This document shows, in pieces, positions 618-54,435 of a stretch of DNA of 64,000 nt. Made by a program: the position numbers and the translations under genes. The DNA is from an uncultured virus (IMG/VR IMGVR_UViG_3300014526_000001) (lineage: Duplodnaviria > Heunggongvirae > Uroviricota > Caudoviricetes). The notes beneath the pieces were generated by a model. The model had not been told where the DNA came from and ran no database searches. It saw only the letters and a program-made list of their open reading frames with translations. Location of the stretch: the IMG/VR virus record IMGVR_UViG_3300014526_000001; one strand, written 5' to 3'. Position 1 is the first letter of the stretch; each line of letters begins with the position of its first letter.

Positions 618-788
618 GTATCAACTTTTAGAATCAATGGAAAGACACTTGAATTCTTCAATGTTATATATTTTTATTGAACTTGGTTCCAAAAGAAACG
701 TGCACACTCTATTCGACGCACCACACCATTTGGATTTTGAGGTGTTATCTACGCTCGGATTTTATAAGACAAATTGATATTTTAAATT

Positions 789-8221: not shown

Positions 8222-8222
8222 C

Positions 8223-12753: not shown

Positions 12754-14700
12754 ATGTCTAATACAATAGATGTTTTTACAGAGATCCAGGCTCACACGGG
12801 TGCTACCGTTCATACAGAAATTATAGCACAGCATTCCGAAAACTCTGCTGTGTATGCCGAGATCACTGTACCAGAAGTAATAGAAAACACAATGCAAGCC
12901 AAGTTCTTTTTATATGGAACAGGCAGAAATGATATTTTAGTAGACATTCAGTCTAGAGCAATCAGAACAAGGTCGATTGACAGTGAAATCCACGCTAGGG
13001 CAATAAGAAGTAAAGATATTTACTCAGAAATTAATGCAGTCTATCGTGGAAACTCAGACATTTTTGTTGAAATTCAGCCAATGGGATTTGTTCAAGTACC
13101 AGCTGAAATCGAAGTACGTCCGCATACAAATATGCAGGCAATCTATGAAACGAAGAAGCCTCCTATTCTTACGGATAGTTACTTCCCAATACAGGATGCT
13201 TTCACTAAGAAAGAAACAGGATTCCAAACAATCAACTATGGTAAATCCTCTACAATGGTGATTGGAAATAATGATGAGTTCGAATCTTTTATTAGATTTG
13301 AAACAAAGAGAATGGACAGTCGATATGTAATCACGAATGTAAAATTAGAGCTAACATATCTTGGAGAAGTTGTTGATGGTTACAAAATTAATCTTCATAC
13401 GGCTGCCCGAGCATGGTATGAGACAGGTATCACCTATCAAAACAAACCACCTAAATTAGATTTAATTTCTCATAATTATGTAAACGATAAAGCTCGAAAA
13501 GTTATTATCTTCGATGTAACAGATATAGCATCTGCGTGGCTATTTAAACAAGCAGAAAACAATGGTCTTGTCATGTCTACAATGGAAAAAGATTCTCTGT
13601 ACTTTAGAACTAATAACTCTAGTGAAAAATATTCACCAAGATTAGTCGTAAGCTATTACGATAGTGTAGTTCCAAGTACAGGAAGAAGTCAAATACGCTC
13701 TGAGATCTTTATCTACAATAGAGAAACCAAGGACGTTCGTGCAGAGATTGAAGTTGCTTCCACATTTAGCTTTGAAAGAATTCTAACAGAAATTTATGTT
13801 CACCAACCAGATGTTCCTTTGGACAATAATATCTTTACAGAAATCACAGTAAATAAGGCGGTTGTCGAAGCAGAAATAACAGCAATCCGAAGTGAGCAAT
13901 CCGAAGTATTTGCAGTTGTAACGGCGCGAAGTGAGCAATTTAGTCGAAGTATAGATGCATCTATTACTGTATCTAGGAAATTTACATTAGCAGAAGTCAC
14001 AGCCAGACTCCAGGATAAATTAGAAATTGATTCTGAAGTCTATGCATCAAGAAACAAAGTATTGAGCGAAATTTCCGTATCTTTAGAAGGCCAAGACAGT
14101 ATCTATGCGGAGATTACAGCAAACGATATTCATGTTCGCTACATTGAAGCCGAGATCACGCCAAGAATTGCTAAATTAAGCGATATTTTTGTGGAGATCG
14201 AACCGAACATCAAATCAGATATCCTAAGCGAGATCACTTCTACACGGGAAATCATTTTATCCGAAATCATGGCAGCTAGACGCGATGATAGCGAGACCTT
14301 TGCGGAATTAATTGTTCGTGCAATAGATAATAGCGATACTGAATGTATTGTCCTCGCATCCAAGGACAAAATCTTCACTGAAATCACGGTGAACATTTGG
14401 AAAGATGAAGACATTACTTTAGAGATTACTCCTAGAATTAAGCGAGAATCCGAGGTGCTTGCTAATATCTACGTAAGCAATATTTCTGAGGTCCTTACAG
14501 TAATTGATGTAGTTGGTTCAAGCTTAAAACCTGCTGAGGTCACTATTTCGAGGCAGATAGCCCAGGCTGAAATTTATGTTCCTTTCTACGAAGATGCCGA
14601 TATCTTAATAGAAATTAAACCTCGTATTCTATTTGCAAACGACATTAATTGTGAAATCACGATGGGTAAAGTTTCAAAAGGATATGCGTTTATCATGTAA
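12754..14700 (+). CDS. Repeat-rich fibre-like protein with central DNRLRE-type domain
   Basis: QDAF...NYG...FIRF...FDVT...NNGL...PRLVVSY domain flanked by many short 'DI.aEI.v' repeats. Confidence 0.7.
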   Translation: MSNTIDVFTEIQAHTGATVHTEIIAQHSENSAVYAEITVPEVIENTMQAKFFLYGTGRNDILVDIQSRAIRTRSIDSEIHARAIRSKDIYSEINAVYRGNSDIFVEIQPMGFVQVPAEIEVRPHTNMQAIYETKKPPILTDSYFPIQDAFTKKETGFQTINYGKSSTMVIGNNDEFESFIRFETKRMDSRYVITNVKLELTYLGEVVDGYKINLHTAARAWYETGITYQNKPPKLDLISHNYVNDKARKVIIFDVTDIASAWLFKQAENNGLVMSTMEKDSLYFRTNNSSEKYSPRLVVSYYDSVVPSTGRSQIRSEIFIYNRETKDVRAEIEVASTFSFERILTEIYVHQPDVPLDNNIFTEITVNKAVVEAEITAIRSEQSEVFAVVTARSEQFSRSIDASITVSRKFTLAEVTARLQDKLEIDSEVYASRNKVLSEISVSLEGQDSIYAEITANDIHVRYIEAEITPRIAKLSDIFVEIEPNIKSDILSEITSTREIILSEIMAARRDDSETFAELIVRAIDNSDTECIVLASKDKIFTEITVNIWKDEDITLEITPRIKRESEVLANIYVSNISEVLTVIDVVGSSLKPAEVTISRQIAQAEIYVPFYEDADILIEIKPRILFANDINCEITMGKVSKGYAFIM

Positions 14701-16150: not shown

Positions 16151-17008
16151 TTGGATTATACTAAAAAAGGAGAAGGGGGTGGTCACTTGGATGCGAAGTT
16201 AGATAGCTTGAGGGTAGAATTTAAAGAGCATTTACTTAAATACCGATCTAAGACAACGGCTAAGACATACGAGTACAATGTCCGATGCTTTTTGAGTTAT
16301 CTTGAAGACAACAATATTCCTTATGAGCAGGAAAGTGTCCAGGCTTACTTAGACTCCTGCACGTCAAGAGGACTTGCAGCGTCTACTGTAAATAAAATAT
16401 ATAGAGCACTTCGTTCTTTTGCTGTATTTACTGGAGAAGAAAATGTAGTAGAGAACATAAGAGTTGTTAAAATGCCAGACTATAAGAACCAAGCTCCGAA
16501 AGCTCTCCGAAAGCTAGAGAGAGTCAGCTTAATCGAGAAAGCAGAGAAAGACATCTTACGAAACTTCGCAATAGTAATAACATTATTAAATACAGGAGTT
16601 CGTGTAAGCGAACTAGTTTCTATAAATCGAGAAGATCTAATAATTGTAAAAAATGAAGGAGAGGTGAGAATCAGACAAGGAAAAGGTAACAAAGAGAGAA
16701 CGTTGCCACTAAACAAGGAAACCAGAGACGCTATTGCTGAGTATCTAGAAACGAGAACAGATTCTAATCCCGCATTATTCTTAGGATCCAAGGGTAGATT
16801 AGGCGTAAGAGGTGTTCAGCATGTTTTAAAAAAATATGGAATCCATCCGCATCAACTACGTCATACATTTATTACTGATCTAGTACGTAAGCATGATTTA
16901 ATACTTGTTCAATTCCTTTCTGGTCACTCATCTACAGATATTCTTGCTAGATATAGTAAGCCATCTAAAGACGACTTACAAATAGCTGTAGAGAACGTTT
17001 ATAGTTAA
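16151..17008 (+). CDS. Tyrosine recombinase (XerC/XerD-like)
   Basis: LLNTGVRVSE (R), GKGNKER (K), HQLRH, LSGH and ARYS (Y) catalytic motifs. Real start may be TTG 16187. Confidence 0.9.
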   Translation: MDYTKKGEGGGHLDAKLDSLRVEFKEHLLKYRSKTTAKTYEYNVRCFLSYLEDNNIPYEQESVQAYLDSCTSRGLAASTVNKIYRALRSFAVFTGEENVVENIRVVKMPDYKNQAPKALRKLERVSLIEKAEKDILRNFAIVITLLNTGVRVSELVSINREDLIIVKNEGEVRIRQGKGNKERTLPLNKETRDAIAEYLETRTDSNPALFLGSKGRLGVRGVQHVLKKYGIHPHQLRHTFITDLVRKHDLILVQFLSGHSSTDILARYSKPSKDDLQIAVENVYS

Positions 17009-22891: not shown

Positions 22892-23815
22892 ATGGCGAAT
22901 AAATCTCTCTTTAAAGACTTGGAAGGAATTAAGTCGTACATGCCAACAAGCGAGGAGGATAACTATATTACTGTTAATGGGACAGTTTCATCCTACGCAA
23001 TAAAAACAGGATACACAGCCCCAACCAAAGAGATTACTATTGAACAGTGGCTAAAACCTGATGTCTCTTCAAAAACCATGTCAAGCTTTTCTTATGCTCA
23101 TTCATCATCAGACAATTCAGTTTTACTCTACAATGTAAATAAGAATATTACCCCTCATGTTAACAATTCGACAGCAACAACGGGCTTAAGCCTTCCTTCA
23201 GGAGTTTTTTCACACCTAGCTTTAACATGGAGAAGCTCCGATGGACTGCTTCAAGTATTTATTAATGGCATAAAAAGATATGAGACAAAAAATATTTCTA
23301 AGGGCTTTATAATTCCTTCCGGCGGAGCTGTTGTTTTAGGACAAGAACAAGATAGTGTAGGAGGAAGTTTCCAAGCCACACAGGCCTTTCTTGGAGGTAT
23401 TAGCGAGACAAGAGTGTGGAACAAAGTATTAACAGAAGGAGAAATTAAACAAATGATGCCTGTAAGTTTAACCGGATTAGAAGGAGGCCTTGTTAGTTGC
23501 TGGAGCTTTTCAGAAGGAATAGGAAGTAAGGTATCAGATAAAACGCTAAAAGCTCAAGACTTAACCTTAATAGGAGCTAGCTGGAAAACAGAAGGCGTGC
23601 CGCTAAAAGGGCACTTTAGATGGGGAACGATTGATGATTCTCCTATCTCTAAAGACATGTTTGATGACTATGGTATTCACAGTATGGGTGTATTTAATCG
23701 TAAGCCAATAGCGCAGAAGATTACTGTAAAAAAAGGCGAAGACAAAAAGTTTTTAAGTACCTTAAATTTTAGTGAAATCAATAATGTCTTAGCCATTAAA
23801 ATTGAGGTGAAATAA
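22892..23815 (+). CDS. LamG/pentraxin domain inserted into module A
   Basis: ITIEQW, HLALTWRS, VLGQEQD, ISETRVWN motifs lie between NKSLFKD..GIKSY and WGTIDDSPISKDMFDDYGI. Confidence 0.8.
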   Translation: MANKSLFKDLEGIKSYMPTSEEDNYITVNGTVSSYAIKTGYTAPTKEITIEQWLKPDVSSKTMSSFSYAHSSSDNSVLLYNVNKNITPHVNNSTATTGLSLPSGVFSHLALTWRSSDGLLQVFINGIKRYETKNISKGFIIPSGGAVVLGQEQDSVGGSFQATQAFLGGISETRVWNKVLTEGEIKQMMPVSLTGLEGGLVSCWSFSEGIGSKVSDKTLKAQDLTLIGASWKTEGVPLKGHFRWGTIDDSPISKDMFDDYGIHSMGVFNRKPIAQKITVKKGEDKKFLSTLNFSEINNVLAIKIEVK

Positions 23816-24573
23816 TGAGAGCTCGATATGTATTAATAGAAGTGTATGACTTTTATAGTTCAAATGGTGCCACCATATCAGAAATTGAGTTATTTGACGC
23901 AAATAATAAAAAGATAAATTATAGACCAATCGATGTTTATGATTCTCATACTGGCGGATTACCTAGCTACTGGAACAATGCATCTTTATGGGGCAAAACA
24001 AATCTGAATGACAGTGAGATATCTTATACCGATAACTGGTCAGGTGCATACAGTACTACATTGTTTTTATGGAATGGGTCACCGAACAGAGGCAATTGGG
24101 CAAGGTTTGTTCTAGACTTAGGCGGTTTTATAGATGTTACTCTTATTAATATGTGGGTAGGATCTCCTGAAGGGCGAATTCCTCATAATATTAAAGTCTT
24201 TTTGTCAGAACAATATGATTCCACAAATGTATCTGGAAGACAAAATACAAAACTCAGCTTCATTCAGCAAATAAATTTCACAATGAATAATAAGGCCGTA
24301 AAGCTTTATCAAATTGAAATAGATCCTGAATTGAAGTTTCTTATTGTAAACCAAGAAAAAATAAATACATTCAATACAGAATGGATCACATTAGATGCAT
24401 CAGAAATAACAAAAGATCTAATAGATTCATCTGGTTTTTCAGGATTAAATAAAGTAGATAGAAAATTGGTGGAAATTAACAGTTCAATGATCCAAGATGA
24501 AATTACAAGTACGTATAATACGTTCATTGACCTAAACGAATTTCATAGTGTAATGTCCATAAGAATCAAATAA
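23815..24573 (+). CDS. Circularly permuted discoidin-like payload plus module A
   Basis: Starts ARYVLIEV...ISEIELFD; C-terminus KFLIVNQEKINTFNTEW...FIDLNEFHSVMSIRIK. Confidence 0.7.
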   Translation: MRARYVLIEVYDFYSSNGATISEIELFDANNKKINYRPIDVYDSHTGGLPSYWNNASLWGKTNLNDSEISYTDNWSGAYSTTLFLWNGSPNRGNWARFVLDLGGFIDVTLINMWVGSPEGRIPHNIKVFLSEQYDSTNVSGRQNTKLSFIQQINFTMNNKAVKLYQIEIDPELKFLIVNQEKINTFNTEWITLDASEITKDLIDSSGFSGLNKVDRKLVEINSSMIQDEITSTYNTFIDLNEFHSVMSIRIK

Positions 24574-24758
24574 GAAAAAGAAAAAGACATATCAAGGCTT
24601 CAGAACCCGAAGAGAATAGCAATACAATTAAGCCATAAGACAAATCCACTTTAAATCATGATAAATCAATAAGTAGTATTAAAAATAAGAAAACTACAAT
24701 TCGTCTCACTATTAAAAGCATGCATGTAATAGTGAGATATAATTTAATCCAATATCTA

Positions 24759-24786
24759 ACTACCTATAATATATGTTATGTAAACT
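24759..24786 (+). other. dif: dif-like Xer recombination site
   Basis: ACTACCTATAA-TATATG-TTATGTAAACT versus B. subtilis dif ACTTCCTAGAA-TATATA-TTATGTAAACT as recalled (25/28). Confidence 0.85.
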
Positions 24787-24954
24787 AAAAAAACAAATCT
24801 ATACTTATACATCTTTGTTTTAGAGATCTTTAGATTATTCTTTTGAAATGTTTTTTAGCATCCATTATTAAAGCTATTGTTGCATATAGTCCATCCAGCA
24901 CTAGCCATTGTCCTTGATTATTATGATTATTTGTAATAAAATAAGGTTAAAATA

Positions 24955-25082
24955 ACAAAGATGCAGGTGTTAGCACCACCCACATCTTCGATAGTCGCTC
25001 GCTTGATAAAGCGGCCAGCTTTATGAATGATAAAAGTAATCACCCAATTAGCCGGGACAGCTTACGGGGTGATTACTTTTTT
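24955..25082 (+). ncRNA. Putative antisense antitoxin RNA of a type I TA locus
   Basis: Convergent with the toxin 3' end. Upstream TTGATT...TAAAAT promoter-like sequence; ends in AAAAGTAATCACCC / GGGTGATTACTTTT hairpin. Boundaries approximate. Confidence 0.55.
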
Positions 25083-25171
25083 AATTGAACGATCATGATT
25101 ACAACCATAACTAGTGTTAAGACAAACATGCCGAACCCTAGAATAACGTTTGCTACTTCTATTGTAATCAT
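25073..25171 (-). CDS. Type I toxin, holin-like small hydrophobic peptide (TxpA/BsrG/BsrE-like)
   Basis: MITIEVANVILGFGMFVLTLVMVVIMIVQLKK (32 aa); AAGGAGGTGA RBS overlapped by a CCTTCC/GGAAGG hairpin. Absent from the ORF track. Confidence 0.8.
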   Translation of the reverse strand: MITIEVANVILGFGMFVLTLVMVVIMIVQLKK

Positions 25172-25380
25172 TGGCCTCACCTCCTTCCCTTTCCGGTTGG
25201 AAGGCTTGGCCGCTCACCCCGCTGTATGCAACTATGCTAATAATTATATCAGTTTATAGAAGATTTTTCATCAACTTAATAGACACTATTAACATTACTG
25301 TTATCCTTAATTTCTACAGGTTGACTAGATCGCCTCTAATTTCCAAGAGCTAGTCTATCATTAGCGAAATCCCATATCCT

Positions 25381-25734
25381 TCAGAAATTGTCTTTCAAAG
25401 CTCTATTGAGTAAGGCTACAGATCGATCCAAGTCGTTTTTTACTAGTGCCTTATATGCTTTTACTTTTTCCATATCGCTAATCTGATAAACTGCAACTTC
25501 TTGCATCTCTGTACCCTCTTTGTCTATCCATTTACGTTTAATAAGCCCTTCTTTCAGTAGTTCATGTAAAGACTTGTAAACTTCGGATTTTGTCGGTTTG
25601 TACCCAAGATCATCGAAATAATCGATGAGATCACCTAGGATTTGAAGCCCATAAAGATTACCATGCTCTGCCTTCTGCAACATATAAAGTTTCAGATAAG
25701 CCCTCTGACGTAGAATGAAAGTTGTTCGCCCCAA
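25381..25734 (-). CDS. rtp: Replication terminator protein homologue
   Basis: QRAYLKLYM...LYGL...KP..SEVYKSLHELL...QEVAVYQ...LDR...AL.DNF is collinear with B. subtilis RTP; AAGGAGG RBS. Confidence 0.85.
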   Translation of the reverse strand: MGRTTFILRQRAYLKLYMLQKAEHGNLYGLQILGDLIDYFDDLGYKPTKSEVYKSLHELLKEGLIKRKWIDKEGTEMQEVAVYQISDMEKVKAYKALVKNDLDRSVALLNRALKDNF

Positions 25735-25836
25735 AACAAAACCTCCTTAAAAGCCTGTTCGTGTATATTCTTCAGTTTACCAGATAGTATAGAGCGAGTG
25801 CTATTCTTATTAATAAAGGATTATTTAGAACCATGT

Positions 25837-26748
25837 TCAAGTTGATGACTTAAAAATAATACCTTGGACTTGCTGATACTTTATCAGGTTAATAGATCGA
25901 AAAAATACCTTTCCTTGTTCATCTGTTTTTTTATTTTCCATCTTTAAGGCTATAACAACAGGCCTTCTTTTCAACTCCACTAATATTGATTTACCGTATG
26001 TTTCAATCTTCTCTTTCGTTAAGTCGTTACCTATGTCAATCCACTTCGAATCTAAATATGTCTTATAAGTATCCTTATTAAGAAAAAAGACTTTGTCATC
26101 ATCTATTTCTCCATATGCTTTTATTGCTGCCATTTCCATGTAACCCTTGCTTCTGACCTTTGCATGAACTTTAATAAAGGTAAACTTAAAAGACCTCTCC
26201 AATACAGTTTGTTGCAAAACTTTATCAGCTGTTACTCTTCCTACGGCAACGAGTTTCCAGCTTGGGTCATTTGGCTTGTATTGAACACTCATATCAGTGC
26301 TTTCTGTTGCGTATATTTCATAATCTCCAACGTCTCCATCAGAACTAGCAGAAGCAATATATAGTTCGTTTACAAGAAAGATGATAGCTTCCTTTTGATA
26401 CGCCCGTGGATTAATAATAAAACGGGCAAATCCATTTACTGTATAGTAAGTGCTGATTGTCGTAGATGAGGAGCCAGCTTTTATTGTGCCAGTGTGAGTA
26501 TGTGCGACATCTTTGTCATCATCATTCTCAACTGATCCCTGTACGTGCCAGTGGTTGTTAGGAGTCCACCATGAATCTCCGCTAGTTGGATCTAAATTTG
26601 ATGGTTTATATGAACCTTTAATGTCACCTTCAGCAGTGAACGTTGTATAGTGTGAAGCACCATAAGGATAATCCGCCCAGGTGACTCTTGCTCCATATTC
26701 ATAGTTCAATATGTTCCTATCCATATAGCTTGTCAGTGTCGTAACCAT
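25837..26748 (-). CDS. Jelly-roll-like payload plus module A
   Basis: C-terminus KVFFLNKDTYKTYLDSKW...YG...GKVFFRSINLIKYQQVQGI. Confidence 0.7.
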   Translation of the reverse strand: MVTTLTSYMDRNILNYEYGARVTWADYPYGASHYTTFTAEGDIKGSYKPSNLDPTSGDSWWTPNNHWHVQGSVENDDDKDVAHTHTGTIKAGSSSTTISTYYTVNGFARFIINPRAYQKEAIIFLVNELYIASASSDGDVGDYEIYATESTDMSVQYKPNDPSWKLVAVGRVTADKVLQQTVLERSFKFTFIKVHAKVRSKGYMEMAAIKAYGEIDDDKVFFLNKDTYKTYLDSKWIDIGNDLTKEKIETYGKSILVELKRRPVVIALKMENKKTDEQGKVFFRSINLIKYQQVQGIIFKSST

Positions 26749-26822
26749 TCCTACACCTCTATTTCCAGAATATAATCCGTATTATTAAGAAGCTCGAGGA
26801 ACAATTAACCTCGAACTTCTTT

Positions 26823-27860
26823 TTACATTAGACCTAAATCAGTCAAGTGATAATATTTTTTTAAGTTAATCTTTGTATTGAACAGTTTATCGCTCACAGA
26901 AGATACTCTGTCAATCATTACGACATCACTAACTGTGGATAATCGATTCAATAAATGATGACCATCCATACCATCAGATTTAAATAGAATTTCGTTGGGT
27001 GGCTCATCTGAAACTGACTCCCATTTACAGTTAGTGAGTTTAAGATACTCCCCGTTTAAGTAAATAAAAGACTTATACATTAGCGCAATAAATCCCCATC
27101 CATAAGGGCCACCGCAAACCCCAATGTTCGACCTAGTGTTGTCAGGATCAAGTATAGTGGGACTACCTGTATCAATCAGATTAACTGGCAATGACTTCAA
27201 GACGGAATCATTTTCCGTGATGGTTCGCTGAAGTGAATTTGTAAATGTTCCACCCCCATGAGAATAATCAAACACGCAATTAAGCCATACTCCTTTTCCT
27301 GAGTAGTTTGATGTATACCTTCCATTGCATTTAAAGATGCAGTTGGTTGCTTTTGGGCCGGCAACCAGTTGGTCATTGTAATAGCAAGTAGACCATTTTA
27401 TTGTTCCTTTGTTCTCAATAAACAAATTACGGAAGTTTCCGTTACACCAGCGAAATATAGCATTAGAATAACTGACTGATTTTCCTGGAATAAAATTAAT
27501 CTTCATATTGGATATGACTGTCCCTGCATTAGGTATTTCAAACAAGTTGGCATCCCGACGAATGCCTTTTGTGCCATCAAAATTAATTACAGTGTTTTCA
27601 TTTTCACCCCATATCGCCAATTTCTTGTTATAGTCGTAAAAACAAACACTTCGATAATACGTATCGAGTACGAGATGAGGTGCTTCATAAACACCAGCTT
27701 GAATAAATATTCCATCCCCACTAGCAGCCATTTGAATAGCTTTAATATGGGAATTATAAGGCGCCATCTTGCTTCCATCCCCAGTAGAGTCGTCTCCATC
27801 AGGACTTACATACCAGACTTTATTAAAATCTTTTGGATTTGGTAAGACGTAATTTGGCAA
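26823..27860 (-). CDS. DUF1565-like / beta-helix payload plus module A
   Basis: WYVSPDGDDSTGDGSKMAPY N-terminus; SNIGVCGGPYGW; C-terminus KSFIYLNGEYLK...W...GMD...KLFNTKINLKKY. Confidence 0.75.
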   Translation of the reverse strand: MPNYVLPNPKDFNKVWYVSPDGDDSTGDGSKMAPYNSHIKAIQMAASGDGIFIQAGVYEAPHLVLDTYYRSVCFYDYNKKLAIWGENENTVINFDGTKGIRRDANLFEIPNAGTVISNMKINFIPGKSVSYSNAIFRWCNGNFRNLFIENKGTIKWSTCYYNDQLVAGPKATNCIFKCNGRYTSNYSGKGVWLNCVFDYSHGGGTFTNSLQRTITENDSVLKSLPVNLIDTGSPTILDPDNTRSNIGVCGGPYGWGFIALMYKSFIYLNGEYLKLTNCKWESVSDEPPNEILFKSDGMDGHHLLNRLSTVSDVVMIDRVSSVSDKLFNTKINLKKYYHLTDLGLM

Positions 27861-27927
27861 TAGATTTAACCTCCTTTATTTATGGTTATACGGATTATAT
27901 TTAGTGCTATAGATAACGGGGAATGGC

Positions 27928-28713
27928 TTACTTCAAAATACCGTCAACTTCTAAATTTTTGATGTCAACATATCTGGTAAAATCTATTGTTTTACTAAAT
28001 AGTCTTCCAGAACAAATAGCAAAATCTGAATCGGTCACTTGCTCCCTAAGAGTCTCAACCACTCGATTGTATGATTGCAAATCAAACATGGTAATTCCGT
28101 AACTGTCAAACATATATTTTGAGACAGGAGCAATCCCAGCTACTCGCCAAGAGGAATCGTTATAAGTCTTTATCACTTTTCCCTCTTGAAAAAGAACCCT
28201 CTGACCGATTAAAGTAGTAGACAAAATAATAATAGGTACTGCATCAACAGCCCATGGCCTAAGAGTTTCACTTACAAAAGTTACATTTTTATATATGCTG
28301 TATTTAAATCCTATGGTTCCATCTCCTGTAACTAGTGCAACATCGCTAAAATCATTAAATGACCTAGTGTAGGATGTAGTTGTTCCTAATTTTAATGGAT
28401 AGTCAATTGCTAGATTTACATCTTGCGCTCCTCTAAAGAGCCAATATCTCAGTGTGAACAATGTATTGTTTGCTGGGAAAGCGCTTGTAATCGAAAAGCT
28501 TCCACTTGCTGTTAGTCGTCTATAATATAAATAAACGCCATTTCCAGCTCTACTGCCTATTTTTATATACCCCGACGGCAAAGATGGATCCTTACTTCCC
28601 GCTCCATTTATATAAACCCCTACTACAATAAAATCATCTTTTAGTCCATTGTTTACCACGACAGTTCTTGTTAATCCAGAGATTGATGAAGATTCTATTA
28701 GTTTAATTGCCAT
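27928..28713 (-). CDS. Beta-rich payload plus module A
   Basis: C-terminus RVLFQEGKVIKTYNDSSW...PVSKYMFDSYGI...GRLFSKTIDFTRYVDIKNLEV. Confidence 0.7.
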   Translation of the reverse strand: MAIKLIESSSISGLTRTVVVNNGLKDDFIVVGVYINGAGSKDPSLPSGYIKIGSRAGNGVYLYYRRLTASGSFSITSAFPANNTLFTLRYWLFRGAQDVNLAIDYPLKLGTTTSYTRSFNDFSDVALVTGDGTIGFKYSIYKNVTFVSETLRPWAVDAVPIIILSTTLIGQRVLFQEGKVIKTYNDSSWRVAGIAPVSKYMFDSYGITMFDLQSYNRVVETLREQVTDSDFAICSGRLFSKTIDFTRYVDIKNLEVDGILK

Positions 28714-28739
28714 CGTTTCACTCCCATTTTAATTGTGTG

Positions 28740-28914
28740 TTAAGTTCTTTCAGATGGATTGCTTTTATATTTGGACAGATTCAAAGATTGTGAGGAAGCC
28801 GATCTTGCATAGAATCGAAAATAGGAGTTATATCAGTTAACGGAATAGGGGGCATTTCCGAGATTCTTTTGAATTAATTCCTTACAACGATAATCGTGGT
28901 CCAACTGCCGCTAT
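28740..28914 (-). pseudogene. Internally deleted paralogue of 30719-31900
   Basis: Same AAGGAAGTGAAGT RBS, start mutated to ATA, (I)AAVGPRLS ~ MATIGQQLT, then SEMPPIPLTDIT and SQSLNLSKYKS. Confidence 0.75.
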
Positions 28915-29042
28915 TTTAACTTCACTTCCTTTTAGTACTTTATTACTTAAAAAATAAAAATTAAGCACACCTAAGTTTTGCTGTGCTCCCCAAATGGACT
29001 ACAAAAAAACACGGAGTAGAAAACCGTGTTAGTTTACCAATA

Positions 29043-29903
29043 TTATTTAGTCGCTATTTCCAGATTCTTAATGTTTGAGTATTTATTCAAGATTAATGTT
29101 CCACGAAAGATATTGTCATCAATAAGTAATGACTTGGGATTACCAGACACAACCTGCGCTTTTCGATCTAAAATTGAAGCGATTTCAAAGCCGTTCTCAA
29201 TAATAAAATCAGTGGAAGGCATTGATGGTCCTGAAGCATCCACAACAAAAATTGAATCATCTATTTTTGTTATGAATTTGTATGTTCCGTTGTAATGTAC
29301 AAACGTTTTTTCTCGAATGAGTAAACTTTTATGATAATACGAAATTCCAGAGGAAACTAAAGGAGACATTTTAACTTCATTGACAATTAACCGACTAGGA
29401 TCAAAGGAGCTCCAAAATATCAAACCTATAGAATCTTCTGCTGGAGCCGATCTTGCTTTAAATATTTCTTTTATCTCAGATTGAGGTAGTTGCCTGTTCC
29501 AGAATTTTGGTAGCTGGATAGTAACTATGTCAAAAAAGTTCCCTATTGAGCCAAAGACCTTGCCGCAACTTGTTGTAGCTCCTAATGAAGACACAAGTTC
29601 TCCATTTACATAAATTATTGTAGAGGACCCAAAAACAACTGCAACATGATATGTCTCTCCCTTAGTAAGCGAAAAGTTGGAGTATTGAACTCTTCCAGGG
29701 CCACCATAACAATTACCACCTGTTCTTACACCAATTGTATTATTGGCTGACAGTTCAATAGTTGCTTCCTCGTTCGTGGATCGTCCTGTGAACAATTTTA
29801 CAGAGCTACTACTTGATTTCAATACTTTGATCCAAAAATCAACAGTGAGAACACTAGTCTTAGGGAAACTAAGTGTACCGTTTTGTATAGGATAGCTTAT
29901 CAA
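29043..29903 (-). CDS. LamG-like payload plus module A
   Basis: LTVDFWIK, YHVAVVF, IYVNGEL, KFWNRQL; C-terminus ILDRK...IFRGTLILNKYSNIKNLEI. Confidence 0.7.
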   Translation of the reverse strand: MISYPIQNGTLSFPKTSVLTVDFWIKVLKSSSSSVKLFTGRSTNEEATIELSANNTIGVRTGGNCYGGPGRVQYSNFSLTKGETYHVAVVFGSSTIIYVNGELVSSLGATTSCGKVFGSIGNFFDIVTIQLPKFWNRQLPQSEIKEIFKARSAPAEDSIGLIFWSSFDPSRLIVNEVKMSPLVSSGISYYHKSLLIREKTFVHYNGTYKFITKIDDSIFVVDASGPSMPSTDFIIENGFEIASILDRKAQVVSGNPKSLLIDDNIFRGTLILNKYSNIKNLEIATK

Positions 29904-29917
29904 ATTAGAATACCTCC

Positions 29918-30715
29918 TTACTTTTTTTGCTCTACTTTCGTAAATGGATGGTTTTTTGAATCAATAATGTCTATATTATCTATATCTAAATAATCATTAA
30001 GTGACACCATTTTCCTAAAAGTATTGCCTGAATCAAAAGTGATATTTGTGAGAATCATTGTATCCTCTTTTATTCTTGTCGCTCTGTCAAAAACAGAAAG
30101 TGAGCCTAGACCATGAAGATCAAACAAGGCACGTGTAGGAGAAGTAGAGTCAGTAATTGACCATGTATCATCTTTAAAAGTCATAAGATTTTCCCCACTC
30201 TGTACAAGAAACTTTTCAGTAGCTATGATCTTTCCATAAATTCTGAATACTGTTGATTGATAATAAGTTCCTTGATAAGCACTCGAAGTGTAAATTCGTA
30301 TTTTCCAGCAAGAAAAATCTACGTTTATGTTCACAATCCCGCTCTTGTGACTCCAACTTGTATAGGATTTTACCGTTTCCCATCGACTATCAGTTCTCGG
30401 ATCATTGTAAGAAGCTGTGTGATCATCGGTGTATTGAATAGCAAAATTAGACGGTGAAGTATTGCCATTCCAGCTTGAGACACCAAATGCAACCTCAATT
30501 TTTTGAACTTGCATTTTTTCGGTGTTGTTGATAGGAAATATAGCGACAACACTTGGAGAACCAAAACTTACTATGTGACTTCTATAAACTCCATCTGGTC
30601 CATTCCCGTCATCAATCTTGCCCCATGTCCGACGAAGCAATGTTGTCATATTACTATTGTTAGACTGAATGCTTGCTCCTAGATTTATCATACTAAAACT
30701 CCTTTTAAAAGCCAC
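29918..30715 (-). CDS. Discoidin-like payload plus module A
   Basis: PSNFAIQYTDD...W motif; C-terminus KFLVQSG...W...PTRALFDLHGL...FRKMVSLNDYLDIDNI. Confidence 0.7.
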   Translation of the reverse strand: MAFKRSFSMINLGASIQSNNSNMTTLLRRTWGKIDDGNGPDGVYRSHIVSFGSPSVVAIFPINNTEKMQVQKIEVAFGVSSWNGNTSPSNFAIQYTDDHTASYNDPRTDSRWETVKSYTSWSHKSGIVNINVDFSCWKIRIYTSSAYQGTYYQSTVFRIYGKIIATEKFLVQSGENLMTFKDDTWSITDSTSPTRALFDLHGLGSLSVFDRATRIKEDTMILTNITFDSGNTFRKMVSLNDYLDIDNIDIIDSKNHPFTKVEQKK

Positions 30716-30718
30716 AGC

Positions 30719-31900
30719 CTAGATTTTTAGAGATTGAATGCTTGTATATTTAGACAAATTTAAGGATTGTGAGTAAGCAGATTCCTGCTCATGACTGGTG
30801 ATATTTTGAGTAATATTAATCAATGGAATAGGAGGAAGCTCTGAGGATTTTCTTTCAAATATACTTCTGTCTTCCATCCCCCACTCTAAGAAGTCGTGGA
30901 AAGTAGATATGGTTTCTGTATCATAAGCGCTCCAGTGAGCCGACGATTCTATTACCGACTCTAGGAAATCAATTTCTGTAATCGCAAAAGCTGATGTCCC
31001 ATAGGTCGATTTAATAAACAATCCGTACTTTTGGTAATGCTTGCTGTTTTTAAAGTCAAAAGTTCTTGTTTCGCCAGCCGCCCATGGAGTTGTATTGAAC
31101 TCTGCTAAGTCTACATATGCACCATTTTCATATGCTTGAACAATAAAATTCTTCACTCCTTGTGTCGTGACATAACTATCTACTCTGGCTGTAATGGCAA
31201 CTCGAACAACTCTTTTAAGCTTCCCAATGTCATAAGAAATCCATTGTGGCACTGCACCATTTGTTTGTCCTGTGTGCCAAGCGCCATTAGCATGGACATT
31301 GAGTTTTTTATCGAAAGCTCTAAAGCCTTCATATCCGCTTCCCCATATGCTGCTTTGCTCAACTATACCTGTAGGTGTTGTTGCTGAAGTCATTGCTGGG
31401 ACTACACTAAAGTAGCCACCTTTAACTTCAGGATTCCATTTTTTATATTTATCATTGTGCAAAATAAGAGTCCTGTCTTTTTTTACAACAGATTCGTCAT
31501 AAGTAGATATTCCAAGGCCATTACTTTGCACATCAACAGCTCTTAAGGTTCCTAAAGATGACAATACCGTAATAATTACCGTATGCCATCTGTCGGTTAG
31601 TCCAGTGGCAACGAATCCTACGTAATTATTAGCATTAGCAGAATGGTATCCTTTATAAGCTAAAGGCTCCTGTCCATCAATGGAGATGCTCATGTTTCCT
31701 CTGTTTGACCATGAATACACTAAGACAGTCAAAGAAGTCCCATAAAAGTTAAAACGGACTGTTGAGCCTTCTGTATAAGAAATCATGTCGGAACCAGAAT
31801 TATTTAACCATCCATTACTATAGTTAAAATTAGAATCCATAAATAAGTATCTTTTATATCCATTTTCTGCGGCGGTTAATTGCTGTCCAATAGTTGCCAT
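30719..31900 (-). CDS. Two-payload protein; discoidin inserted into module A
   Basis: N-terminal FNFYGT...ISIDG...HTV jelly roll; MTSATTP discoidin; C-terminus YSQSLNLSKYTSIQSLKI. Confidence 0.8.
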   Translation of the reverse strand: MATIGQQLTAAENGYKRYLFMDSNFNYSNGWLNNSGSDMISYTEGSTVRFNFYGTSLTVLVYSWSNRGNMSISIDGQEPLAYKGYHSANANNYVGFVATGLTDRWHTVIITVLSSLGTLRAVDVQSNGLGISTYDESVVKKDRTLILHNDKYKKWNPEVKGGYFSVVPAMTSATTPTGIVEQSSIWGSGYEGFRAFDKKLNVHANGAWHTGQTNGAVPQWISYDIGKLKRVVRVAITARVDSYVTTQGVKNFIVQAYENGAYVDLAEFNTTPWAAGETRTFDFKNSKHYQKYGLFIKSTYGTSAFAITEIDFLESVIESSAHWSAYDTETISTFHDFLEWGMEDRSIFERKSSELPPIPLINITQNITSHEQESAYSQSLNLSKYTSIQSLKI

Positions 31901-31901
31901 T

Positions 31902-33317
31902 TTACTTCACTTCCTTGGTGTCAAATCTAGCGGTTCTTATATCTTTATATGTCTTTAAGTTAATATCATAATAGTGAACGTTACTGATTTTTGTAGCGAC
32001 CGACAAGTTAAACTCTAAGAGTGTGTTACTTAGCGCTTTCGATAGGTTATCTTCGCCATGTGTACTTATTAAGCCTAAGTCATCAGTAAATTCTTCCCAT
32101 ACTGGAGAGGAAATCTCTTCATCCATCCCAATAAACTCTAGCTTTGTAAGTACAAAGTAATTTCTATTAACAGTTCGAACATTGTAGATTCGATAAGCGA
32201 GGTACCTTTGATCGTTTTTAAAAGAGAATGTCTTTGTCTCGAATATTCCCCAGTTATTGATACTTGCAAACTCTGCAAGGGTTGTCCAGTTGGTCATATC
32301 GTCGCTTGCTTGTACACGAAAAATCATTGGGGCATCTGAGGAAGCATATGAATTATTTCTTGTTCTTATTGTTACCTTAGTAATCTTTCTAGGTATGCTA
32401 AATTGATATCCGATATATTCATTCTCTGCATAAGTTCCTGATTTTGCTGAATGTCCTTCTCTAGCATCATCTACAAAAACAAAATAAGCTTGTGTATTAG
32501 AGTAAACTGATTTTGAGAAAGCTAACCCTTCAGGTTCAGTGTTGCTAGTCATTGTAGGAACAAGATTTCTCTCTACTAGATAGTTGGGATTTGGAAGAAA
32601 TTTCTTATGCTTATTTTCATGAAGAACAAAACTTTTATTCTGATAAATAAAGTTTTTGTCATTAATCATGGTTGATATATCCATATCAAAGACAATTAAA
32701 TTTGCTATATTTCCTTTAAATGGGTTTGCATTGCCACCTGAATTCCATTGTCCTAACCTGGCATTCATTCCCGTCCATTGCCTAGCAAGCTTCCCATTAG
32801 ATACTGCCTTTGGTTTTGAAAAATCATCAATGTATAGCTTTACATTATTATTCCCTACTTTTCCGTCCCAGGTAAAAAGCACATCATGAAAATTCCCATC
32901 ACATATGTTAAAAGTCGTATATGGAACAGTAACCCTTGGAAAGCAAGCATTCCAAGCGTTATGATAAAAATCAACAAATAATCCTGTAGATGATAAACAA
33001 AACTGAATTCCATTAGTTGATGATGTTGCCTGAGTACCACCTATTATTTCTCCCCACGATGAAGGCTTAAAAGCTTTAAGTCTCATATAAATACTCATAG
33101 CTCCAATAGGCGTCAAACGTGTATTAAGCAATACTGAATCATTTACTCCATCAAAATACAATCCTTCATTCACAACCCACGTTGCACCAGATATTGTACC
33201 AACATAGCTGTTTTTGCAGTCTCTAATAATGGATCCGGCGCCTTCGTCAAACTTATACCAACAGATCGAATATTTTTCAGCTAAGTGTTCGATTATGTCT
33301 TGACGATTAACAGTCAT
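31902..33317 (-). CDS. LamG plus discoidin inserted into module A
   Basis: WYKFDEG...FDGVND...HDVLFTWDG; KSFVLHENKHKKF, MTSNTEP discoidin, then INLKTYKDIRT. Confidence 0.8.
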   Translation of the reverse strand: MTVNRQDIIEHLAEKYSICWYKFDEGAGSIIRDCKNSYVGTISGATWVVNEGLYFDGVNDSVLLNTRLTPIGAMSIYMRLKAFKPSSWGEIIGGTQATSSTNGIQFCLSSTGLFVDFYHNAWNACFPRVTVPYTTFNICDGNFHDVLFTWDGKVGNNNVKLYIDDFSKPKAVSNGKLARQWTGMNARLGQWNSGGNANPFKGNIANLIVFDMDISTMINDKNFIYQNKSFVLHENKHKKFLPNPNYLVERNLVPTMTSNTEPEGLAFSKSVYSNTQAYFVFVDDAREGHSAKSGTYAENEYIGYQFSIPRKITKVTIRTRNNSYASSDAPMIFRVQASDDMTNWTTLAEFASINNWGIFETKTFSFKNDQRYLAYRIYNVRTVNRNYFVLTKLEFIGMDEEISSPVWEEFTDDLGLISTHGEDNLSKALSNTLLEFNLSVATKISNVHYYDINLKTYKDIRTARFDTKEVK

Positions 33318-33497
33318 AAAAACAACACCTCGATATAATTAGTCCTTCTCTTATTACTAATAACTTTAGATCTTAAGCACATCAAAGGATTGATTGCACT
33401 CGAAACAAACTTAAAGGTTGTGAGAAAATTAACGAAGCCATCTTATTTTTACAATAGGATAAATAGAACTTAAGGAAAAGAAACAAGAATAAATAGT

Positions 33498-33524
33498 AAA
33501 AGACCAACCAAAATGGTTGGTCTT
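33498..33524 (-). terminator. Terminator after the large lysin
   Basis: AAGACCAACCA / TGGTTGGTCTT stem. Confidence 0.6.
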
Positions 33525-33611
33525 ATTATAGGGTGAGGGGGAGGGGTCTTTTAGAGAACCAGGTTCTCATAGTTTTTATTACGACTTATCATTCCTTATA
33601 TAACCATCAAA

Positions 33612-36600
33612 TCAAACTTTTATCTTTTTATGCAACTGACCTTTTAGATATGGTAATGCGACTTTTGGATCAATCGTTTTGTTCTGTGCATCTCTTATTT
33701 CAAAGTGTAAATGGAAGCCTGTTTTACCATAGACCCTTCCTGTGTTGCCTTCTTTGGCAATCACTGTGCCAGGATTCACTGAGTCTCCAACAGAAACTTG
33801 CATGCTTTTATCTTGTAAGTGCATGTAGATTGTTCTGACTCCGCCCTCATGTGTAATTTCAACCACATTCCCCATTCCCCCATTATATCCTGGAGATACC
33901 TTTGTTACCTTGCCCTTGGCTGCTGCAACAATTGGCGAACCGCTACCGCCTTGTAGGTCGATACCATTGTGGAACTCTGTTCCGCCGTTAATACTACGAT
34001 TACCATAGTCACTTGTGAATGTAACCTTATTATCATAGTAATCGCTTGAATAAGGGAATGTCATTGCGAATCCAATCTCTTTAGCAGCTGGAGCTGTAGA
34101 TAAACTCTCCGCAATGTCTTTAGACATTAAAGCCTTATAGATGTAGTGTATTTTAGGGTAATACTCTAGCTTTTCCTTATGCCTACTTGTATCTCCAGGC
34201 CATTGTCCTTTTAAGTTTCGGTAAAAGTTCGTCCAAATTTGATCATACGTCCAAGTGCTGTGCTGATTTTTATCTAGTCCTGGAGTATAGACAGGGCCAT
34301 ATCCTTTAGAACTATTACCAATTATTAAAGCCTCGCCGGAATTATAGGCAATGCTTAAGTTTACAATATTGCTTGATTCCCAAACAGCTTTGCGTTTGCT
34401 TACAAGATGCGCACAGCCTTTTTCTATGTTTGTCTTTATTTTATCCGAAATAGACATGCTTAAATAATTACTTGGCAAATTGTTTATATGCATCTGCATT
34501 AGTCCTACAAATCCGTCAGGTTCACCATTATTATATCTCCCTGTCGATTCTACTATAATGACCGATAGCACAAGCAGAGGATCTAGTCCATATTTAGTAG
34601 CAGCATCCTTAATATACTGTTCGAAGTTAGAGTCTGCATCTTTTAAAGCTTTGAGTGCAGAGTCTACGTTTTTAGCGTATGCTTTACCGTTGTTCACGTA
34701 CTGCGTCATTGCATTGTTTGTTGCTAAGCTATCAAAGACAGCATCATTCATCTCAATTTGCTTCCGTACTTCTTCTGTCGATTGGATAGAAGTTGTCTCT
34801 GTTCCTCCCGTGTAGCCGCCACTACCCGAAGGTGAGAATCCTCCTCCGTATCCTAACTTACTGTAGAATGTAGAACCAGTTGGCCCATAGAAGATACCGA
34901 TCCCTTCAAAGCCTGCGCCAGTAGGATCGTTGTGATGCTCGATATTTTTGTAGTTACTAGCTAAGCGTTCTGATTCACGTCCGTCGTCATAACGAACATG
35001 TGGTGTTTGCTTCTCGATAGGAACTAAATCCCAATTCATTTTAAAGCCCTCTGGCCATACTTCCTTGAAGTCTTTATCCCCGTCTTCACGCTTGTTCTTC
35101 TTGATCTGCTCAAGATCAAGGAACATCTTTTCTATCTTGTCTGGCTTCTCCTCAATCTTTGTCTGGTCGATGGAGTCTTGCATTTGCTGATAAGCCATTT
35201 GATTATCATCATTAATTAACTGCAGAGAGCGCCCCAGTTCATTCTCGATCTCATAAACCTTACCAAGTATTGGTTCATATCTTGTACAGCTTAGACATTG
35301 ATCCAACGTCATAACCTGACCATCGTTTATGCGATCATGATGGAGGCAACGAATTGATTTGTATTTATGGAATTCACTTTGTCCGCCATAATACACACAG
35401 TTGATATTAATGCGCGAACCTAATCGGAATGTATTTCGGTAAAGCGTTGCAAGGTTGTTCTCTACCTGAACCATCCGCTTCTCAACTTTATCTGACAAAT
35501 CCATAACGATCTTGGCCAGCTGCACTGTATGTTGATGTGGTTGATAGAATGATAATCGATGAATCTTCATAAACGGAAGATGCTGCTCAAGTTCTTCAAT
35601 CTTTTCATCTACTGGGAGCGGATCATTGTTATTAGCTGGCTTTCCGAAGTTTGGGACTTTCTTTTTGTACCTGTGTTCTTTATTATCATAAACAAGTGAC
35701 CGCTTCTTGTAATCTTCATAATCAAAAAAGATTTTCGCAATGTCGATCCCTTTTTTAATGAATGACTCGAAATTAACTTCGTTAGCCATATCATACTTCT
35801 GTTCAGTTTCCTTCTTTTCCTCTTCGTTTTTCCATAAAGGAGACAATGGCTGTACGTATTCCTTTGGAGTCTTTTGAGGAGCCACTAAGTCAGGGTAAAC
35901 CGGTTCTCCTGGTGTCTCTTCTAAGGGCTGCTTATCAATAACAACAAGGCCGCCACTTGTCGTTACTCTGAAGCCACCTTCTGAGTTAGGAGCTGTTGAA
36001 ACAGAAGAATTTGCAAAAGCATCTTGTAATCCGTCAACCGAACTGCCGATCGAGTCTCCCGCTTCTGCTGGAGTCTGTCCCTCAATATCAGCCTGATTAA
36101 CAGACAACTTTATGTCAGCCACTTGCTGAGAAATATCGCCTTTCCAGTTATCAAGGTCAGCCTTTTTGCCAACACATTTAACTAGCGTGAAAGCAATAGC
36201 CTGGCAGATTTTCTCAAAGTTCTGCTTGTACAAAGTCATGTCAGTAGAGCTATTCATAAAGCAAATTTCTAATAATAACGAGTTCGCTTTACAGCCATTA
36301 GTAAATGCTAGCGACTTTGACTTTGGACCGCGGTCCTTAAATCCACCAGCAAGGGCCATAGCAGCTGATACTGCCGCCGCCATTTTATGCGTAGTAGAAT
36401 CTCCACTTTTATAAAACGCCTCTGATCCAATTCCACTAGAGGTGGACGTACCAGAGCTATTAAAATGGACACTCACATCCAATTTACGTGTTTGCTTATT
36501 GTGGTAATTTACAAGATGCGTTAAGTTAGCATTTTGCGTTGTACTGACGTCATCATAATAGAATTCGGCTGCTAAGCTATTCTCTTTAAGAATTTCTACA

Positions 36601-36704
36601 ACACGTTTAGAAACGTTACGGGCCTCCCCTACCTCAGTCATTCCATTTCCGGATGTTCCCGCAACATGTGTCCCGTGTCCTGCTGAAATAATAATATCTG
36701 CCAT
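33612..36704 (-). CDS. Tri-catalytic peptidoglycan hydrolase (amidase_3 + SLT transglycosylase + M23 peptidase)
   Basis: SAGHG / SVHFN / LLEICF; AATKYGLDP...IVES...GLMQ...AYNSG; HNGIDL / YMHL / HLHFE. Confidence 0.85.
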   Translation of the reverse strand: MADIIISAGHGTHVAGTSGNGMTEVGEARNVSKRVVEILKENSLAAEFYYDDVSTTQNANLTHLVNYHNKQTRKLDVSVHFNSSGTSTSSGIGSEAFYKSGDSTTHKMAAAVSAAMALAGGFKDRGPKSKSLAFTNGCKANSLLLEICFMNSSTDMTLYKQNFEKICQAIAFTLVKCVGKKADLDNWKGDISQQVADIKLSVNQADIEGQTPAEAGDSIGSSVDGLQDAFANSSVSTAPNSEGGFRVTTSGGLVVIDKQPLEETPGEPVYPDLVAPQKTPKEYVQPLSPLWKNEEEKKETEQKYDMANEVNFESFIKKGIDIAKIFFDYEDYKKRSLVYDNKEHRYKKKVPNFGKPANNNDPLPVDEKIEELEQHLPFMKIHRLSFYQPHQHTVQLAKIVMDLSDKVEKRMVQVENNLATLYRNTFRLGSRININCVYYGGQSEFHKYKSIRCLHHDRINDGQVMTLDQCLSCTRYEPILGKVYEIENELGRSLQLINDDNQMAYQQMQDSIDQTKIEEKPDKIEKMFLDLEQIKKNKREDGDKDFKEVWPEGFKMNWDLVPIEKQTPHVRYDDGRESERLASNYKNIEHHNDPTGAGFEGIGIFYGPTGSTFYSKLGYGGGFSPSGSGGYTGGTETTSIQSTEEVRKQIEMNDAVFDSLATNNAMTQYVNNGKAYAKNVDSALKALKDADSNFEQYIKDAATKYGLDPLLVLSVIIVESTGRYNNGEPDGFVGLMQMHINNLPSNYLSMSISDKIKTNIEKGCAHLVSKRKAVWESSNIVNLSIAYNSGEALIIGNSSKGYGPVYTPGLDKNQHSTWTYDQIWTNFYRNLKGQWPGDTSRHKEKLEYYPKIHYIYKALMSKDIAESLSTAPAAKEIGFAMTFPYSSDYYDNKVTFTSDYGNRSINGGTEFHNGIDLQGGSGSPIVAAAKGKVTKVSPGYNGGMGNVVEITHEGGVRTIYMHLQDKSMQVSVGDSVNPGTVIAKEGNTGRVYGKTGFHLHFEIRDAQNKTIDPKVALPYLKGQLHKKIKV

Positions 36705-38502: not shown

Positions 38503-38508
38503 TGTTAA

Positions 38509-54334: not shown

Positions 54335-54435
54335 CTCGTCACCTCCATAGACGCCCCCTACAGAAACTTTATTACTCTGTAGAAGGAGTCATTTAAGGTT
54401 ACTGGCTTTGGCTTTAAGATGATTTCTTAAATATG

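Follow-up and report, generated by a model that had tools for sequence, protein, structure and literature searches.

The window analysed here is a 64,000-nt stretch of DNA from an uncultured virus (IMG/VR record IMGVR_UViG_3300014526_000001). At a junction of about 1.26 kb (24574-25836), where two convergent gene blocks meet, it carries a terminus cassette. The cassette spans 1.15 kb and comprises, in this order, an accessory repeat, a dif site, a small toxin gene, the gene rtp for a replication terminator protein (RTP), the rtp promoter and a Ter site (Table 1). By sequence comparison, this layout matches that of the Ureibacillus thermosphaericus chromosome. The window probably belongs to a myovirus-like phage-plasmid, a circle of about 138 kb from a host of the Caryophanaceae (Ureibacillus/Sporosarcina family), with the cassette at the junction of its two arms.

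The first-pass annotation had placed a chromosome-style terminus at the strand-switch point of a phage-like replicon. The strand switch is confirmed. Considering all open reading frames (ORFs) of at least 80 amino acids (aa) that are not nested in a longer one, those on the left (3-24573) lie on the plus strand, and those from 25381 to 36955 on the minus strand.

The terminus cassette

The gene rtp encodes, judged by its profile matches, a genuine full-length RTP. The protein matches Pfam PF02334 over positions 2-113 of 113 (112/113; E 1.1e-39, 135.9 bits, cut-off 26.7). Its residues 3-117 are collinear with residues 8-122 of the Bacillus subtilis RTP (PDB 1F4K, E 5.7e-31), and a match to phrog_38489, annotated as 'replication terminator', was obtained with E 3.5e-29. 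The tyrosine aligning with B. subtilis Tyr33 is invariant in the RTP alignment. The PadR model scores the protein at 26.1, under its cut-off of 27. In a maximum-likelihood tree of 63 distinct RTP rows, it falls within a ten-row clade of chromosomal RTPs from Caryophanaceae (support 99/96), on a long end branch of 0.65. The RTP homologue recorded at first pass is therefore real, and it groups with RTPs and not with PadR regulators. Variation is low: in four relatives, 1 of 354 rtp positions and none of the 28 dif positions are variable, against 3-6% in the flanking spacers.

The dif-type site is the sole match to its 28-mer in the window at up to 3 mismatches, and 100 shuffled sequences contained no match at all. 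On the 137,917-bp circle described below it likewise stands alone, the closest other sequence having 8 mismatches. In 33 of 80 Bacillales loci (GTDB species), single sites with 2-5 mismatches to the window dif are located within 10 kb of a chromosomal rtp. Exactly one match at 2-3 mismatches was found in 92 of 301 sampled genomes of the Ureibacillus family, and none with a reversed-pattern control. In the complete genomes, these family matches sit near mid-chromosome. Compared with the commonest dif of the family, the window site agrees at 10/11 and 11/11 arm positions and at 4/6 positions of the centre; a site on Bacillus mycoides plasmids is 27/28 identical to it. Its uniqueness and its kinship with single chromosomal sites near rtp identify it, at the sequence level, as a genuine XerCD-type dif site, as the earlier reading had it. 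Presumably, it is the target of host XerC/XerD (CodV/RipX), which would resolve dimers of the element. The gap between dif and the rtp stop codon was measured as 594 bp, in agreement with the spacing of about 600 bp first noted. On the U. thermosphaericus chromosome, about 610 bp separate the 3′ end of rtp from the dif site that follows it, and the two are oriented to each other as in the window.

An inverted repeat accompanies the site. Of 40 distinct dif loci, 28 have the motif TCTCA-N22-24-TGAGA within 100 nt of dif on the XerC side, and none has it on the opposite side; the background rate is 0.0028 per 100 nt. The motif lies 4-23 nt from the XerC-side arm, and an inner AAGTTTACTT is frequent. 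The loci with the repeat are from chromosomes of several Bacillales families, one B. mycoides plasmid and the element studied here (L004, L008, L016, L022, L031, L032, L035 and others). In four related assemblies, both arms of the repeat are unchanged and all changes are confined to its spacer. The repeat may be an undescribed accessory element of Bacillales dif sites, one that has been missing from their description.

Dif-like sites without rtp were observed on plasmids of B. mycoides and Bacillus toyonensis. Others lie in unannotated DNA of large Bacillus phages, e.g. FADO, PJN02, 2S-4 and PK-3. The phage records OM236516, OM634653, ON133270 and ON881243 (142-166 kb) contain intergenic dif-like sites, 26/28 to 31/33 nt identical to that of the window; a protein search of these four phages gave no rtp match. 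In chromosomes of Parageobacillus, Geobacillus and Bhargavaea (L039, L048, L050, L062), a tyrosine recombinase gene starts about 270 nt from dif. Its product is 26-29% identical to the recombinase of the window and may be a dif-linked enzyme or belong to an element inserted at dif.

Ter sites were searched with a matrix built from 10 distinct chromosomal sites (maximum 34.2 bits). The site upstream of rtp reaches 30.2 bits; the next match in the window scores 15.9, and the best scores of 20 shuffles range from 10.0 to 19.4. The 250 nt before rtp were aligned for the window and 14 Ureibacillus, Sporosarcina and metagenome loci. In 14 of the 14 loci, a bipartite Ter motif is present about 105-110 nt before the rtp start, with a strongly conserved gene-proximal half and a weaker distal half. 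The site of the window keeps this bipartite, asymmetric layout. An inverted partner adjoining it was found neither in the sequence nor in the upstream alignment. A 13-nt sequence, which we take to be the core of the B. subtilis Ter site, was used as a further search pattern and was not enriched in the window (7 matches at up to 2 mismatches, 6.5 expected). As this core occurs at chance level, the element does not use the B. subtilis motif. Articles searched for part of this core yielded nothing pertinent.

Whole-genome searches support the assignment of the motif as a terminator site and not merely a promoter element. In Sporosarcina G003, two sites with 0-1 mismatch stand immediately before rtp, at 147728 (+) and 147964 (+), and two more are located at 159516 (-) and 159851 (-). 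Sites of the same quality in Sporosarcina G004 are at 126464 (+), 138087 (-) and 138475 (-). In both genomes, the two groups face inward at a distance of 11-12 kb, and no other site of such quality was found genome-wide.

In 12 of the 14 aligned relatives, a second conserved block (25754-25766; core CACGTACAG, in the window CACGAACAG) stands after the -10 region of rtp and before its ribosome binding site. Its role may be that of a further operator or of a leader element.

Between dif and rtp, a gene for a hydrophobic peptide was recognized. The peptide matches PF16935 (Hol_Tox) at 31 of 34 positions with E 8.6e-5 and 22.8 bits, just under the cut-off of 23.3. A promoter-like site is present at 25271-25243, and an inverted repeat (25026-25052/25060-25086) coincides with the hairpin region. 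None of the 161 positions in 24912-25072 is variable in four assemblies. Plasmid pBpOF4-01 of Alkalihalophilus pseudofirmus shares the gene with its flanks at 71-78% conservation. The toxin candidate is possibly part of a type I toxin-antitoxin or addiction module.

Table 1. Positions of the cassette components and of other features of the window discussed in the text.
Feature	Position	Strand	Remarks
Accessory inverted repeat TCTCA-N24-TGAGA	24704-24737	.	21 nt from XerC-side arm of dif
dif-type site	24759-24786	+	11-nt arm, 6-nt centre, 11-nt arm; 28-mer ACTACCTATAATATATGTTATGTAAACT
Terminator-like hairpins between dif and toxin gene	24956-25086	-	sites at 24990-24956 and 25056-25043
Hol_Tox-like small toxin candidate	25073-25171	-	32-aa hydrophobic peptide; PF16935
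rtp, RTP homologue	25381-25734	-	117 aa; PF02334
rtp promoter-like site (predicted)	25786-25813	-	TTAATA, 16 nt, TATACT; -10 region aligned to a block conserved before chromosomal rtp genes
Ter-like RTP site	25818-25838	-	4 nt upstream of the -35 hexamer; 30.2 bits
Weak opposed Ter candidate	679-699	+	15.8 bits, within shuffle range
Weak opposed Ter candidate	13214-13234	+	15.9 bits (shuffles reach 16.7-19.4); within coding sequence, 12.6 kb from the strong site
Xer-like tyrosine recombinase	16151-17008	+	285 aa; PF00589, E 8e-25
Partition module: ribbon-helix-helix protein, ParA ATPase, ParB-like protein	37436-39492	+	PF12651, E 2.5e-12; PF13614, E 3e-34; phrog_164 (ParA-like); phrog_4715 (ParB-like)

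A circular replicon with two arms

A near twin of the window is an IMG/VR virus record of 137,994 bp with a 77-bp direct terminal repeat and a CheckV completeness of 100%. Window positions 1-43009 correspond to record positions 94985-137994 (99.6% identity), and 42933-64000 to 1-21067 (99.9% identity). The window thus spans the ends of a record with a terminal repeat, which shows the molecule to be circular. Phage genes for tail sheath, tail and tail-fibre-like proteins and an endolysin were identified with Pfam and PHROGs. The ParA- and ParB-like genes are located 12 kb from the terminus cassette. The element also encodes an SNF2 helicase, SSB and a tRNA-Arg. The best NCBIfam models for its recombinase are XerA, XerC and XerD (E 1e-46 to 1e-33), all below their cut-offs. 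No DNA polymerase, terminase, portal or initiator was recognized with Pfam and PHROGs among 104 ORFs (57 in the window, 47 in the rest of the record). The 47 do not include three ORFs crossing piece borders, the two short ORFs L096:18810-19241 (-) and L098:12991-13212 (+), and all ORFs under 70 aa.

The sign of the G-C skew changes between the window bins 23001-25000 (+0.063) and 24001-26000 (-0.084), where the cumulative curve has its maximum. On the circle of 137,917 bp, the global cumulative maximum is at 119 kb and dif at 119,743. The skew inflection expected near 24.8 kb is thus found in the window and coincides with the maximum of the whole circle. The cumulative minimum is located at about 22 kb of the circle (about 18-22 kb of the record), in DNA of 25-29% G+C just past the right end of the window. 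The long arm measures about 98 kb and the short arm about 40 kb. The long arm contains 75 ORFs on the plus and 1 on the minus strand, the short arm 26 on the minus and 6 on the plus strand.

At least half of the sampled words of a 10-kb terminus stretch were found in 20 public runs from 14 studies. Four runs were compared at the level of contigs: X19, X8 and X9 (isolate assemblies from three studies) and X6. The element forms contigs of 137,998 bases in X19 (depth 20.7), 135,317 bases in X8 (28.1), 135,240 bases in X9 (429.5) and 6,145 bases in X6 (8.89). A host-type dif is present on another contig in X19 (depth 5.1), X8 (7.3) and X9 (120.6), with 3 differences from the element dif over 33-34 nt. 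X6 contains four short dif contigs with 1-5 differences and depths of 8.3-138.8. In X19, X8 and X9, the word depth of the element is 3.6-4.1 times that of the contig with the host-type dif; a contig depth is no copy number and a rough guide only, a caution to be set against the picture drawn here. Joints between the element and the host-type dif contigs were not found in the four runs. The assembly data show a separate molecule. The phage-like replicon of the first-pass annotation is accordingly separate from the chromosome, with its own contig at higher depth and a circle closed by the terminal repeat.

Two other readings are affected by these data. In the first, the dif-like site is an attachment site, and the element integrates at the host dif via XerCD or its own recombinase, in the manner of IMEX. 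The close match of both dif arms to the chromosomal dif of the family agrees with this, as do the Xer-like recombinase of the element and the presence of a host-type dif in X19, X8 and X9 and of four short dif contigs in X6. In all four runs, however, the element dif is continuous with element DNA on both sides, and host-type dif sites are on other contigs of different depth without joints, with the proviso that contigs can miss rare forms. Xer exchange needs homology of the dif centre, and the 2 of 6 differences from the commonest family dif would hinder it. The ParA/ParB-like genes argue for plasmid maintenance. Integration, which had been offered as an alternative at first pass, finds no support in the assemblies and is considered very unlikely.

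In the second reading, the window is the terminus of a bacterial chromosome, with a prophage on either side of rtp and dif. In its favour, the RTP shares 66-71% identity with chromosomal RTPs, and the rtp-dif spacing equals that of U. thermosphaericus. Against these likenesses stand the closure of the window as a 138-kb circle and the rating of the record as a complete virus by CheckV. Apart from RTP, none of the 58 window proteins has a homologue beside chromosomal rtp in the closest genomes, and the element is a contig of its own at a different depth in three assemblies. A chromosomal terminus is hardly credible and was rejected, since the assembly data show a separate molecule.

Some further features of the element were observed. 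Paralogous pairs of tail-fibre-like proteins with F5/8 type C (carbohydrate-binding) domains are encoded on both arms (7031-9668 and 30719-33317), with 24-30% identity. Each arm of the element thus carries its own set of likely receptor-binding genes, the two sets being mirrored in orientation. Two adjoining giant ORFs of the virus record G001, L096:2673-10748 (2,691 aa) and L096:10777-18843 (2,688 aa), are without matches in Pfam; the second is matched by phrog_20474, a family called endolysin (E 1.5e-177). Window positions 55000-64000 are AT-rich (26-31% G+C) and contain repeats about 1.39 kb apart (60852, 62210, 63597). Short tandem repeats lie within the plus-strand ORFs 61444-62010 and 62580-63263.

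Proposed function of the single strong Ter site

Replication forks are arrested when the strong B half-site of Ter faces the fork (PMC13220808). In the window, the better conserved half faces rtp, in agreement with the B-site rule of that article. A fork trap lets forks in and not out; a Ter site in this orientation would therefore stop forks arriving from the rtp side. The site would stop a fork moving from left to right after dif and rtp have been crossed. It is presumed to be an operator for autoregulation and, at the same time, a polar fork barrier.

The proposed mechanism involves binding of RTP dimers to Ter, which would repress rtp and form the barrier. The fork of the long arm would be halted after passage of dif and rtp. 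Kept out of the minus-strand arm, it would neither run head-on into transcription nor over-replicate the circle. Host XerC/XerD would act at dif and resolve dimers of the low-copy replicon before ParAB-driven partition. The captured cassette would make the element self-sufficient in hosts that are mostly without rtp.

Alternatively, the RTP may chiefly be a DNA-binding regulator or a factor directed against the host. As such, it would keep its own operon repressed and might bind Ter-like sites of the host, thereby disturbing or supplying chromosome termination. The sole strong site abuts the rtp promoter, and autoregulation of RTP via a promoter-proximal ter is established (PMC10331603). For the Rtp of pBtic235, a phage-plasmid of Bacillus thuringiensis, a role in chromosome termination has been speculated (PMC8116677). 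Cross-binding to host sites is plausible, because the window Ter matches the chromosomal motif of Ureibacillus and Sporosarcina. The retained bipartite, asymmetric Ter layout speaks against a mere regulator, as does the position of the cassette, which is exactly at the arm junction by dif, both here and in the Brevibacillus phage Jenst. Moreover, the host family is mostly without RTP (PF02334 in 4 of 101 sampled genomes). A primarily regulatory or host-directed role is regarded as unlikely.

Several results weigh against the fork-barrier terminus itself. A matrix scan of the whole 138 kb detected no opposed Ter site of comparable strength. Three plus-strand candidates in opposed orientation, at record positions 85414, 95663 (window 679) and 108198 (window 13214), score 15.8-17.3 bits and are within the shuffle range. 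The strong site varies at 2 of 21 positions in four relatives, and one change hits a C that is invariant in chromosomal sites. The skew turns positive across the plus-strand par genes within the minus arm; since it tracks the coding strand, it gives no independent evidence on fork direction. Searches with Pfam, PHROGs and NCBIfam and scans for DnaA boxes recognized no origin or initiator; the record contains 49 such boxes (40-61 in shuffles) and the window 21 (20.8 expected). With bidirectional replication from the skew minimum, the fork of the short arm would reach the terminus before the other and, given the presumed polarity, pass, and the blocked long-arm fork would come last. A single Ter would for this reason not place termination at dif on its own. 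Two rtp-bearing plasmids, pBTHD789-2 among them, were searched whole, and a 24-nt pattern with up to 3 mismatches allowed detected an XerCD-type dif in neither; the pairing of rtp with dif is consequently not general.

Four DnaA-box-like 9-mers at 54119-54497, two of them perfect and 53 nt apart, were observed in and just before an intergenic gap of 690 bp. As the total count equals chance, this cluster gives no more than a faint indication of an origin or of a promoter under DnaA control.

The interpretation of the first-pass annotation is hence supported in part, and the fork trap that it ascribed to the element stays putative. A genuine RTP and one strong Ter-like site upstream of rtp are present, and a comparably strong opposed site in the 138 kb is missing. 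By analogy with Tus on plasmid R1 (PMC10331603), a one-sided barrier against run-on, rolling-circle-like replication would fit at least as well as a classical trap.

A broader proposal is tentative and unlikely. The cassette would be a portable 'terminus in a box', repeatedly captured by large phage-plasmids from chromosomes of their host lineages, with the single Ter as a switch and not a trap, and the TCTCA...TGAGA repeat as an undescribed accessory part of dif. In the plasmid state, RTP would be made, the fork running in late-gene direction would be stopped just past dif, and replication would stay of the theta type, with resolution of dimers. Upon induction, RTP would fall, and the same fork would run round the circle and produce concatemers for packaging.

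Origin of the cassette and comparison with known systems

From the position of the window RTP among chromosomal Caryophanaceae RTPs, it is inferred that the terminus cassette was captured from a chromosome of this host lineage. The RTPs of pBTHD789-2, a Bacillus velezensis plasmid and phage Jenst are placed elsewhere in the tree, each near other chromosomal lineages. Because of this scatter, element-borne rtp looks like the result of several independent captures. Several genomes of the Ureibacillus family without rtp carry the commonest family dif, and the hosts of the element may well be without a chromosomal rtp. The B. cereus group has been stated to be without chromosomal rtp in connection with pBtic235 (PMC8116677).

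RTP homologues were found in 26 of 72,556 PLSDB plasmid records and in 3 of 50,697 phage records (Jenst twice, SecTim467). Most of the rtp plasmids are non-mobilisable replicons of Bacillus, Paenibacillus or Brevibacillus with about 200-240 kb. Of 20 plasmid records with a homologue of the window SNF2 helicase, 15 are also in the rtp list. An element-encoded RTP had been called unusual. It is indeed rare; the statement is overdrawn in view of these 29 records, a PHROG of its own and pBtic235 in print. A DNA search of 23500-27000 against phages gave no match, and scans of viral contigs with the RTP protein and the dif pattern found nothing, the window's own record possibly being outside these sets. 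A metagenome scan yielded five loci, all resembling Ureibacillus-type chromosomes; apart from one lysin-domain match, they share no other genes with the window. In the literature outside subscription journals, pBtic235 was the only element found with a discussion of its own Rtp (PMC8116677); a 41-kb Bacillus phage is briefly named as having one (PMC12786184). A published Ter-rtp-dif cassette on a phage-plasmid was not found in the same literature.

To our knowledge, work on RTP/Ter fork arrest has been confined almost entirely to the B. subtilis chromosome, in which deletion of RTP/Ter has little effect. A replicon of 138 kb with rtp, one Ter and dif within 1.2 kb, in hosts mostly without rtp, offers a small and dispensable system for clean studies of fork arrest, dimer resolution and the link between them. 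The RTP tree suggests that large phage-plasmids took up chromosomal termination genes several times independently, which bears on the movement of fork traps between plasmids and chromosomes. New are the Ter-like site by the rtp promoter, the skew maximum at dif on the whole circle, the separate contigs of higher depth and the nearby par genes. The system as such is the known RTP/Ter and Xer/dif in a new carrier.

The terminus of B. subtilis shares with the element a full-length RTP, a Ter-like site at the rtp promoter, the position of rtp between dif and Ter, and the 28-nt dif type. It is chromosomal, and its dif is tens of kb away from rtp, in contrast to 0.6 kb on the 138-kb phage-plasmid. 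B. subtilis has nine Ter sites in two opposed groups with the terI/terII pair upstream of rtp (PMC13220808), whereas the element has one strong site, which follows the motif of Ureibacillus and Sporosarcina and not the B. subtilis core.

The plasmid pBtic235/pBTHD789-2 is a 235-kb circular jumbo prophage of B. thuringiensis israelensis and represents a phage-plasmid with its own RTP by an Xer-type recombinase (PMC8116677). On pBTHD789-2, rtp is followed by xerS. Its SNF2 helicase is 26% identical to that of the window, and its RTP, which is from another chromosomal lineage, 43%. A weak Ter-like match (12.6 bits) lies upstream of rtp. The gene is located about 15 kb from the skew maximum, in contrast to its position at the maximum in the element.

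The Brevibacillus phages Jenst and SecTim467 have genomes of 126-130 kb. Jenst shows the gene order recombinase, holin, endolysin and rtp; the succession of recombinase, lysis genes and rtp is shared with the window, and the endolysin is 53.5% identical. The cumulative G-C curve of Jenst peaks at 62 kb, near rtp (61.0-61.4 kb) and a dif-like site (64.2 kb); the cassette of the element is likewise at the skew maximum. Jenst carries the plasmid segregation gene ParM (PMC4909266). Its RTP is 44.6% identical to that of the window, and its dif-like site differs at 8 of 28 positions. Upstream of its rtp (L110, about 60880-60960), a perfect 17-nt inverted pair of Ter-like sequences about 50 nt apart has the terI/terII layout, unlike the single site of the window. 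The pair is unannotated in the record, and the available passages of the Jenst paper contain no mention of termination (0 occurrences; PMC4909266).

The Tus/ter systems of plasmids R1 and R6K are plasmid-borne polar barriers, which limit forks and prevent over-replication and multimers (PMC10331603), as proposed for the element. Protein and site are unrelated to RTP and Ter, and the sites of R1 are located beside the origin.

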